Translations under genes and position numbers: made by a program | Shown: positions 59,780 to 61,466 of the stretch, in pieces | Numbering within the stretch: position 1 is the first letter of the stretch | Layout: the number at the start of each line of letters is the position of its first letter | Origin: Escherichia phage vB_EcoP_ShWW44 | DNA length: 64,000 nucleotides | Strand: one strand, 5' to 3' | Sequence record: PQ900156.1 | The notes under the pieces: model-generated | The model's input: only the letters and a program-made list of their open reading frames with translations | Told to the model about the DNA's origin: nothing | Database searches by the model: none

Positions 59780-60286
59780 TTATTCCTGTTCAAAAAGTTT
59801 ACGGTCAGCCTGAATCTGTTTACCCAACTCAATTAGTTGGCTGTCACGGAGTCTAACAGTTGCCCGGAGTTCTTCAACCAAACGTCTGCCTTCTTCAAGA
59901 CTGTTGTCGAGTCTGGCTGCATGGCTTGCAAGACTTCTGCACTCAAGGGTTCCGGCTTCGGCTTGACGTTTATATACCGATGCTCGCCTTTCAGACTGTT
60001 GCATCCGGCTGTCGTAATCACTGCTAACGCGAGCAAGCTCGCTTGCGTAATTACTCTCAGCCGTCTGCAACCGGGAAGTGAGTAACCCGACTTCATAACT
60101 ATGGTTTCTTTGGAGAGCATTGTATTTGTCCTGTAATTTTTGTATTGCCTTTTGGTCTTCAACCTTTTGGTCATCCCATTTCTTTTGAACAGTAGACTGT
60201 CCATTGGAATTACCCCAAAAGTAAATGGTGGCCCCTAGGACCACCACCAGAAGATAAGGCCAACCTTTAGAGATTAGCATCTTCAT
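59780..60286 (-). CDS. i-spanin (Rz-like): N-terminal TM plus coiled-coil periplasmic domain, about 168 aa
   Basis: [20 protein letters not shown] then charged helical region; adjacent to endolysin; start at ATG with GGAGG SD. Confidence 0.5.
59833..60120 (-). CDS. o-spanin (Rz1-like lipoprotein) fully embedded in the i-spanin gene in another frame
   Basis: Signal-like [22 protein letters not shown] with Cys at a lipobox-like position; Pro-rich mature part KPKPEP; start ambiguous (60120 or 60096). Confidence 0.4.
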   Translation of the reverse strand: MLSKETIVMKSGYSLPGCRRLRVITQASLLALAVITTAGCNSLKGEHRYINVKPKPEPLSAEVLQAMQPDSTTVLKKADVWLKNSGQLLDSVTAN

Positions 60287-60902
60287 TACATGCCTCCAGT
60301 GGCACATTGCCTATTCGGTTAGCTACCCAACCATATGTAAAGTCTGGCATGTTTAATGAGGTGTAGTGGTTCAGTTGTTTGGCATCAAGTAACTTAATCA
60401 TTACCTTACATGCTGCAACTTTGCCTCGTTTTTTCTGTAATGCTTTATATGCATTAACAGTACTTGCACCGACTTTACCATCAACCTGTATTTTAGGGTA
60501 GTCTTTGCCATCACGGGACATTTCATTAAGAGATTGCTGTAACCACTTAGCCGGACGAGTTACACCAGTGTTAACACCAGCATCTACCAGCTTGTGTGTT
60601 ACAGCAGGAGATATATCAGCGAAGGCTACGAAGTTAGGCTTAAGTACATAGTCATCAATGTATATCTCAGCAGCCATCTCTTTAGATAAACCTTTCATAG
60701 AACCATCCCAACCATACTCAGTAGCCAGAACTTCTTTGTGAGATTTAGCTACAGATTGAGTAATGCCATGATTAGTTTCCCCACCTGGGTCACGAGGATT
60801 GTTTACATATCCCCCTTCCATATAGAACACTGCCCCCAGGATAGCAGCGACAACTCCTCCCACTGTACCACCTTTCGCAGCAAGTTTCTGTTTAGCTTTC
60901 AT
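60267..60902 (-). CDS. endolysin, GH108 N-acetylmuramidase with N-terminal SAR-like segment, 211 aa
   Basis: GH108 signature EGGYVNNPRDPGGETNHGIT; Gly/Ala-rich weakly hydrophobic N-terminus; AGGAAG SD. Confidence 0.75.
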   Translation of the reverse strand: MKAKQKLAAKGGTVGGVVAAILGAVFYMEGGYVNNPRDPGGETNHGITQSVAKSHKEVLATEYGWDGSMKGLSKEMAAEIYIDDYVLKPNFVAFADISPAVTHKLVDAGVNTGVTRPAKWLQQSLNEMSRDGKDYPKIQVDGKVGASTVNAYKALQKKRGKVAACKVMIKLLDAKQLNHYTSLNMPDFTYGWVANRIGNVPLEACNEDANL

Positions 60903-61152
60903 GTGAATCTTCCTTTGGTCGGAATCGTATCAATCTGCCTATGATGTTTAAGGCAAACAGTGCGATTGCAATATTGGAACCATGGGGAATATCTTCCAGG
61001 ATGTGACGAGGTAGTCCTGTCAGCATTGGTTGAATAATATCTATGGCAGAAAACATAATTAACCCAAATGTACTAATCTGAATGGATGCCCACTTCCAGC
61101 ATCTTTTCCAGTTAGGTACTAACTCAATCTTTCTTTTTAACCTGCGAACCAT
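60892..61152 (-). CDS. holin/pinholin candidate (two TM helices), about 86 aa
   Basis: Two hydrophobic helices; immediately upstream of endolysin; start moved to ATG with GGGAG SD. Confidence 0.4.
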   Translation of the reverse strand: MVRRLKRKIELVPNWKRCWKWASIQISTFGLIMFSAIDIIQPMLTGLPRHILEDIPHGSNIAIALFALNIIGRLIRFRPKEDSHES

Positions 61153-61466
61153 GCGAATATCTCCCGTCTTGCAGCAGCCAATACACCAATAATTGCACCT
61201 GCTCCAGCCCACACCCACTTACCAAAAATTCCAGCACCAACAACTTTATGCTTAATGGTGATGAACTCTTCAATAGTAGGTTCATTTTTAGCTAAGCTAT
61301 CCTCCACATTTTTCAGCCTATTGCCTATGTCATTGATTGAATCCCGTAGTTCCACCAGAGTTTCCTCCAGTTTCTCACGGTCCTGCCTGTCCCTTGTCTG
61401 GTTCTCAAACAGAGTCTTCAATCGTTCCTCCAGTCTGACTAGAAGCAGTTCACCCGATTCATTCAT
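61137..61466 (-). CDS. coiled-coil protein with C-terminal TM helix (holin/antiholin candidate), 109 aa
   Basis: Charged helical N-terminal part and C-terminal VVGAGIFGKWVWAGAGAIIGVLAA. Confidence 0.4.
   Translation of the reverse strand: MNESGELLLVRLEERLKTLFENQTRDRQDREKLEETLVELRDSINDIGNRLKNVEDSLAKNEPTIEEFITIKHKVVGAGIFGKWVWAGAGAIIGVLAAARREIFAWFAG

Follow-up and report, generated by a model that had tools for sequence, protein, structure and literature searches.

Phage N4 carries a two-component spanin, gp60 and gp60a, that is reported to fully complement a spanin-defective lambda lysogen, and the mature gp60a lipoprotein is 56 residues long (preprint, 10.1101/2025.11.12.688109). The same work showed N4 gp61 to be a SAR endolysin; it assigns the pinholin function to gp63 and a non-essential role in lysis regulation to gp62. 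In about 70% of the embedded spanin pairs surveyed by Kongari et al. (2018, PMC6139136), the o-spanin starts at ~0.4–0.5 and ends at 0.9–1.0 of the i-spanin length, and 507 of 528 spanin systems have one or more periplasmic Cys residues available for a homotypic disulfide; the N4 family is unnamed in the main text of that survey, its data being in the supplements. SpaninDB lists embedded pairs for G7C, PhAPEC5/7, ECBP1, and EC1-UPM, placing EC1-UPM under family “N4”. GenBank records describe the embedded ORF as Rz1-like in G7C (gp60′, “embedded within ORF60”) and St11Ph5 (gp60.1), and as “o-spanin”, with LipoP support, in phage Paxi.

The window analyzed here, 64,000 nucleotides of Escherichia phage vB_EcoP_ShWW44 (PQ900156.1), derives from a Gamaleyavirus (G7C-like, N4-like; Schitoviridae, Enquatrovirinae). 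At the locus under study, its DNA is ~96–97% identical to that of PD205, ECBP1, Bp4, and St11Ph5, and 95.6% identical to that of EC1-UPM. Over positions 59780..61466, the identity to St11Ph5 (MG208881.1) is 96.4%, and all annotated gene coordinates match those of the window. Because these coordinates are shared, the window probably starts at base 1 of a genome that is collinear with St11Ph5, with no indels over ~60 kb.

The original prediction placed a nested spanin pair at 59780–60286. We found that these coordinates are those of the outer gene, a 168-aa i-spanin ORF, and that an o-spanin gene lies wholly inside it, in the +1 frame. The call of an embedded spanin pair is thus correct, and such a pair is already known from the G7C, St11Ph5, and Paxi annotations, SpaninDB, and the N4 preprint. 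The locus is, with a probability that we put at about 95%, a functional two-component spanin of the embedded architecture (Summer 2007; Kongari 2018), belonging to the N4 spanin family. Its features are as follows:

60293..60297, minus strand: Shine-Dalgarno sequence GGAGG of the i-spanin gene, 6 nt 5′ of the ATG at 60286, read directly from the DNA
59780..60286, minus strand: i-spanin gene (gp60/gp60.2 homologue), 168 aa plus stop, from the ORF list and the match to phrog_6197
60212..60262, minus strand: codons of the predicted i-spanin transmembrane helix near the N-terminus (residues ~9–25), from Kyte-Doolittle hydrophobicity and AlphaFold2
60129..60132, minus strand: candidate Shine-Dalgarno sequence AGGA of the o-spanin gene, 8 nt 5′ of ATG 60120
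59833..60120, minus strand: embedded o-spanin gene in the +1 frame, 95 aa from ATG 60120, with coordinates identical to those of St11Ph5 gp60.1
60096, minus strand: alternative o-spanin start ATG, 87 aa, the form given by SpaninDB for G7C and EC1-UPM
60001..60012, minus strand: lipobox codons ACA GCC GGA TGC, encoding Thr(−3) Ala(−2) Gly(−1) Cys(+1), with the Cys codon at 60003..60001
59836..60003, minus strand: predicted mature o-spanin, 56 aa, with Asn at +2 and no further Cys; the dual-coding core
59833..59835, minus strand: o-spanin stop codon

Both subunits are homologous to their N4 counterparts, as in the “N4” family of SpaninDB. The i-spanin is 57% identical to gp60 (BLASTP E = 2e-60), and the identity between the mature portions of the o-spanin and gp60a is 79% (BLASTP E = 5e-33). 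The larger second figure might be taken to mean that the o-spanin is the better conserved protein, but this reading was rejected, since the frames show equal conservation when compared over their shared 162 nt (see below); what lowers the i-spanin figure is the weak conservation of its N-terminal half. The pair also resembles that of N4 in its +1 embedded layout, in the 56-aa mature lipoprotein, and in that the cassette ends just 5′ of the portal gene. It differs in the signal peptides, which share no sequence relationship: in N4, a nearby ATG gives a 15-aa signal with the lipobox I-V-G-C, whereas the window has T-A-G-C and a signal of 31 or 39 aa. Essentially the same locus, with few substitutions, is found in G7C (gp60/gp60′), St11Ph5 (gp60.2/gp60.1), EC1-UPM, ECBP1, and PhAPEC5/7, and the best phage match of the o-spanin is 98.9% identical. 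The comparison with curated databases that had been proposed as a check also came out in favor of the prediction, since SpaninDB lists this type of locus under family “N4” with the lipobox TTAG followed by C, which is exactly the EC1-UPM entry. In its Gamaleyavirus entries, this lipobox, the mature start CNS, and the number of periplasmic Cys residues (0 in the o-spanin, 1 in the i-spanin) are as in the window.

The likeness to lambda Rz/Rz1, which the original prediction had called classic, holds for layout and functional class and fails for sequence kinship. In both systems, a type II inner-membrane protein with two helical periplasmic segments is paired with a small outer-membrane lipoprotein encoded by a +1 gene within a gene, and the two genes are the last of the lysis cassette. 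There is, however, no detectable sequence relationship between the pairs. Neither window protein belongs to the lambda Rz (Pfam Phage_lysis) or Rz1 families: searches gave no Pfam family at E ≤ 0.01 for the i-spanin or the o-spanin, and none in NCBIfam. The description of the mature o-spanin as Pro-rich proved overstated, since Pro makes up 4 of its 56 residues (7%), concentrated in KPKPEP; in lambda Rz1 the figure is 10 of 40 (25%). Lambda Rz1 has one periplasmic Cys and Rz has two, whereas the window o-spanin has none and the i-spanin one.

The i-spanin matches the PHROGs family phrog_6197, “Rz-like spanin”, at E = 6.5e-78, and also gives weak matches to other Rz-like families. The GGAGG preceding its start is the same Shine-Dalgarno sequence that SpaninDB marks for the i-spanin of ECBP1. 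Its highest-scoring 19-aa Kyte-Doolittle window covers residues 3–21 (1.61), the only one above 1.6. A single-sequence AlphaFold2 model (mean pLDDT 76.8) consists of a helix at residues 9–110, a break at 111–115, and a second helix at 116–167. The first of these would comprise the membrane helix and alpha-1, so that the model has the usual two-helix layout of i-spanins. The predicted protein thus has the one N-terminal transmembrane helix and the largely alpha-helical periplasmic domain of a type II i-spanin; for the G7C homologue, SpaninDB gives this domain as 93.6% helical, and the G7C o-spanin is predicted there to be 37.5% helix. Cys116, the only Cys of the i-spanin, adjoins the break.

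A terminator-like hairpin lies at 60224..60248 on the minus strand, within the membrane-helix codons and 5′ of the o-spanin start. Six of the 11 bp in its stem are G-C pairs, and TACTTTTGGG follows the hairpin. A “terminator” feature is annotated under the i-spanin match in PhAPEC7, Jura, and AL25.

The +1 frame of the i-spanin gene is stop-free for 133 codons, and the ORF as listed spans 59833..60204. The o-spanin ends 53 nt before the i-spanin stop and is thus wholly embedded; in units of i-spanin length, it starts at 0.33–0.37 and ends at 0.895. The +2 frame is closed, being open for only 19 codons. The Gamaleyavirus database entries differ in the annotated o-spanin start, and the equivalents of the four annotated positions in the window are as follows:

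ATG 60204: 123 aa, used for G7C gp60′
ATG 60120: 95 aa, used for St11Ph5 gp60.1 and for ECBP1 in SpaninDB
ATG 60096: 87 aa, used by SpaninDB for G7C, PhAPEC5/7, and EC1-UPM
CTG 60060: 75 aa, beginning LRVITQ, in one SpaninDB table

We moderately favor ATG 60120. It has AGGA at 8 nt, while neither ATG 60096 nor CTG 60060 has a recognizable Shine-Dalgarno sequence. Shine-Dalgarno sequences also precede the equivalent start in Moo19 (GGTGA) and KP8 (AGGTGA), and in KP8 no ATG, GTG, or TTG is closer to the o-spanin Cys than this start. The 95-aa form is, in addition, the one given for St11Ph5 and in the ECBP1 entry. That the o-spanin starts instead at ATG 60096 or CTG 60060 is a serious possibility, though one to which we give somewhat less than even odds. 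Besides the 87- and 75-aa forms in SpaninDB, it is favored by the PROSITE rule for lipoprotein signals, which places the Cys within positions 15–35: this holds only for the shorter starts, since from ATG 60120 the Cys is residue 40. N4, too, retains an ATG at the equivalent of 60096. Initiation may occur at both ATGs, 60120 and 60096.

The predicted signal peptide is long, at 31 residues from ATG 60096 or 39 from ATG 60120. The string AVITTAGC, which the prediction had singled out as lipobox-like, is present exactly, and its non-canonical character was confirmed: Thr at −3 falls outside the strict consensus [LVI][ASTVI][GAS]C. A re-implementation of the PROSITE pattern PS51257 accepts the T-A-G-C site, and from ATG 60096 the full positional rule holds, since the Cys is then residue 32 and one of the first 7 residues is a Lys. 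With the lipobox Cys, the small 56-aa mature part, and Asn rather than Asp at +2, the product has the anatomy of an o-spanin with a predicted signal peptidase II signal. A second lipobox-like string in the n-region of the leader, SLPGC (60066..60080, minus strand), was considered and rejected, as no hydrophobic core precedes it; in Moo19 it reads SLPDC. Lying in a charged n-region, SLPGC is a decoy able to mislead pattern-based lipobox finders.

A rival reading accepts the o-spanin as genuine but holds that, in this genus, Thr(−3) and the long n-region make it a substrate that Lgt and LspA handle poorly. Maturation would then be slow or take another route, such as cleavage by signal peptidase I or persistence as an anchored precursor, and the pair would behave unlike that of N4. 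We regard this as very unlikely. It is true that the −3 residue is L, I, or M in all 16 inspected relatives outside Gamaleyavirus and Moovirus. It is also true that Thr is not imposed by the overlap. The idea that the i-spanin frame forces it was rejected: the Thr(−3) codon ACA overlaps the i-spanin codon GAC (Asp), and a change to ATA would give Ile while turning GAC into GAT, which is still Asp, as in Ebordelon, Fifi287, and PB119. However, the same TAGC lipobox occurs in LptE of E. coli K-12, whose b0641 translation reads VRYLATLLLSLAVLITAGC... and contains LAVLITAGC. LptE is an essential and genuine outer-membrane lipoprotein of E. coli. Moreover, Moo19 has also kept TTAGC, although its i-spanin is only 78.6% identical to that of the window, which argues for a working site. 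Finally, AWAC works as a lipobox in experiments, and several other deviant o-spanin lipoboxes are listed by Kongari et al. (2018, PMC6139136). Given the PROSITE match, the LptE precedent, and these deviant lipoboxes, Thr(−3) is unremarkable as such; judging by the sequences compared, it is unusual within the N4-type o-spanin family but not disqualifying. Since Ile could be reached without any change in the i-spanin, Thr(−3) is either neutral or mildly favored. A bolder proposal is that Thr(−3) and the unusually long, positively charged 31–39-aa leader of Gamaleyavirus and Moovirus have together been selected to slow or gate the maturation of the lipoprotein. We consider this improbable; if true, the signal would tune the last step of lysis and would not be a neutral variant.

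An open +1 frame might also be a by-product of the codon composition of a charged, helical i-spanin, with no functional protein made from it. To set a chance baseline, the i-spanin was re-coded synonymously 20,000 times. The +1 frame was open for at least 133 codons in 0.7% of the re-codings, and a loosely defined lipoprotein-like signal appeared in ~4%, so that taken alone the single sequence is only moderately improbable under this explanation and provides moderate evidence for an o-spanin beyond chance. The embedded product is, furthermore, unrecognized by the profile libraries Pfam, NCBIfam, and PHROGs, and its membership was therefore established through direct homology and comparative anatomy.

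The comparative data speak against a by-product. In tblastn searches, 158 phage records matched the i-spanin and 158 matched the embedded frame, with the same organism breakdown. The matches come from phages of at least nine host genera, among them Escherichia, Shigella, Klebsiella, Erwinia, Achromobacter, Pseudomonas, Stenotrophomonas, Burkholderia, and Xanthomonas. We fetched 19 diverse relatives (20 loci including the window) and inspected the anatomy of the locus in each. In all 19, the o-frame is open, in +1, and wholly inside the i-spanin gene, and encodes a hydrophobic leader with [L/I/M/T]-x-[G/A]-C at its end and, after it, a conserved tail of 54–63 aa. Lack of a predicted lipoprotein signal, together with lack of the embedded frame in relatives, had been named as the ground for abandoning the prediction; the frame is conserved in 158 of 158 records and 19 of 19 inspected loci, and a lipoprotein signal is present under the PROSITE rule. 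The signal-peptide part diverges in sequence across the relatives yet keeps its hydrophobic character and the Cys. Antisense open runs, by comparison, vary widely in length between relatives with no consistent pattern, the longest runs occurring mostly in phages whose hosts are GC-rich.

The codon alignment of the i-spanin gives the same picture. In the non-overlapping parts, variability peaks at the third codon position, with an entropy of 1.63 on the 5′ side and 1.60 in the 3′ tail. Where the mature o-spanin is encoded, the entropy of this position falls to 0.74, below that of position 1 (0.91), which is the wobble position of the o-frame; the third positions of the i-spanin therefore lose their freedom exactly over this part. 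Mean pairwise identity over the same 162 nt is 57.9% and 57.0% for the two frames, while the 54 i-spanin codons directly 5′ of this overlap are 27% identical. As read from the alignment, the codon-position pattern is that of two overlapping genes under joint selection, i.e., dual coding. Together with the reported ability of N4 gp60 and gp60a to complement the lambda lysogen, these observations leave a by-product scarcely credible: the comparative evidence for a protein-coding o-spanin frame is decisive, and the chance explanation is effectively refuted. With both frames equally conserved over the same nucleotides, the locus is a clean textbook example of dual coding.

As to periplasmic cysteines, the i-spanin has Cys116, while the only Cys of the mature o-spanin is the lipidated one. 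Any covalent dimer must therefore rest on Cys116 alone. In RG-2014 and S6, the equivalent of Cys116 is absent and the mature o-spanin has gained a Cys (NVCPKP and VQCPKP, respectively), a swap that fits the rule of at least one periplasmic Cys of Kongari et al. In JWAlpha, Ebordelon, QDWS595, and T4S1, neither protein has a Cys in the mature-o-spanin segment, apart from the lipidated one.

In the functional spanin that we consider the locus to encode, both genes would be carried by the late lysis transcript, the o-spanin gene lying in the +1 frame of the i-spanin gene. The i-spanin would be a type II inner-membrane protein, with a membrane helix and two long periplasmic helices separated by a short hinge by Cys116. 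The o-spanin would be translated independently from an internal start, probably ATG 60120 or ATG 60096. It would then be exported, lipidated at the Cys of T-A-G-C, and cut by signal peptidase II. Since the +2 residue is Asn, not Asp, the Lol system would be expected to sort the resulting 56-aa lipoprotein to the outer membrane. The C-terminal parts of the two spanins, which are the dual-coding and most conserved segment, presumably form the contact that bridges the periplasm. Peptidoglycan would first be removed by the homologues of gp63 (pinholin) and gp61 (SAR endolysin). The spanin complexes thus freed would collapse and fuse the inner and outer membranes as the last step of lysis, in line with the membrane-fusion model (Kongari et al. 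2018, PMC6139136; N4 preprint, 10.1101/2025.11.12.688109).

The position of the pair fits this role. The spanin genes are the last of the lysis cassette, directly 3′ of the endolysin gene, and the portal gene starts 2 nt past the i-spanin stop. The remaining members of the cassette are as follows:

61137..61466, minus strand: gp63 homologue, the first gene of the lysis cassette, 69% identical to N4 gp63
60892..61152, minus strand: gp62 homologue, matching phrog_1356 and DUF7940, 65% identical to N4 gp62
60267..60902, minus strand: endolysin, an N-acetylmuramidase with GH108 and PG_binding_3 domains (PF05838, PF09374), 70% identical to N4 gp61

The order gp63-gp62-gp61-gp60 is that of N4, with 65–70% identity for the gp61–gp63 homologues. 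All four cassette genes overlap their neighbors by 11–20 nt, the 3′ end of the endolysin gene overlapping the i-spanin start by 20 nt. The N-terminus of the endolysin (KGGTVGGVVAAILGAVFY) is Gly/Ala-rich, weakly hydrophobic, and SAR-like; such composition is typical of a SAR domain. The gp62 homologue is labeled “holin” in databases, including in St11Ph5.

The value of the finding lies chiefly in annotation. In most GenBank records of near-identical phages, the outer gene appears alone, as “Rz-like spanin”, and automatic gene callers routinely miss embedded o-spanins. A correct o-spanin call completes the four-function lysis cassette of the phage. The opposite omission was seen in the distant relatives HN03, Axy10, and PB119, where the embedded o-frame ORF is annotated alone and the enclosing i-spanin is missing. 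In HN03, the i-spanin frame extends over 254 codons and reaches into the portal region, pointing to a frameshift or a sequencing error. In many GenBank records of near-identical phages, one cassette gene is labeled “tail length tape-measure protein” or “tail needle protein” and another “holin”. No gene of the lysis cassette encodes a tail protein.
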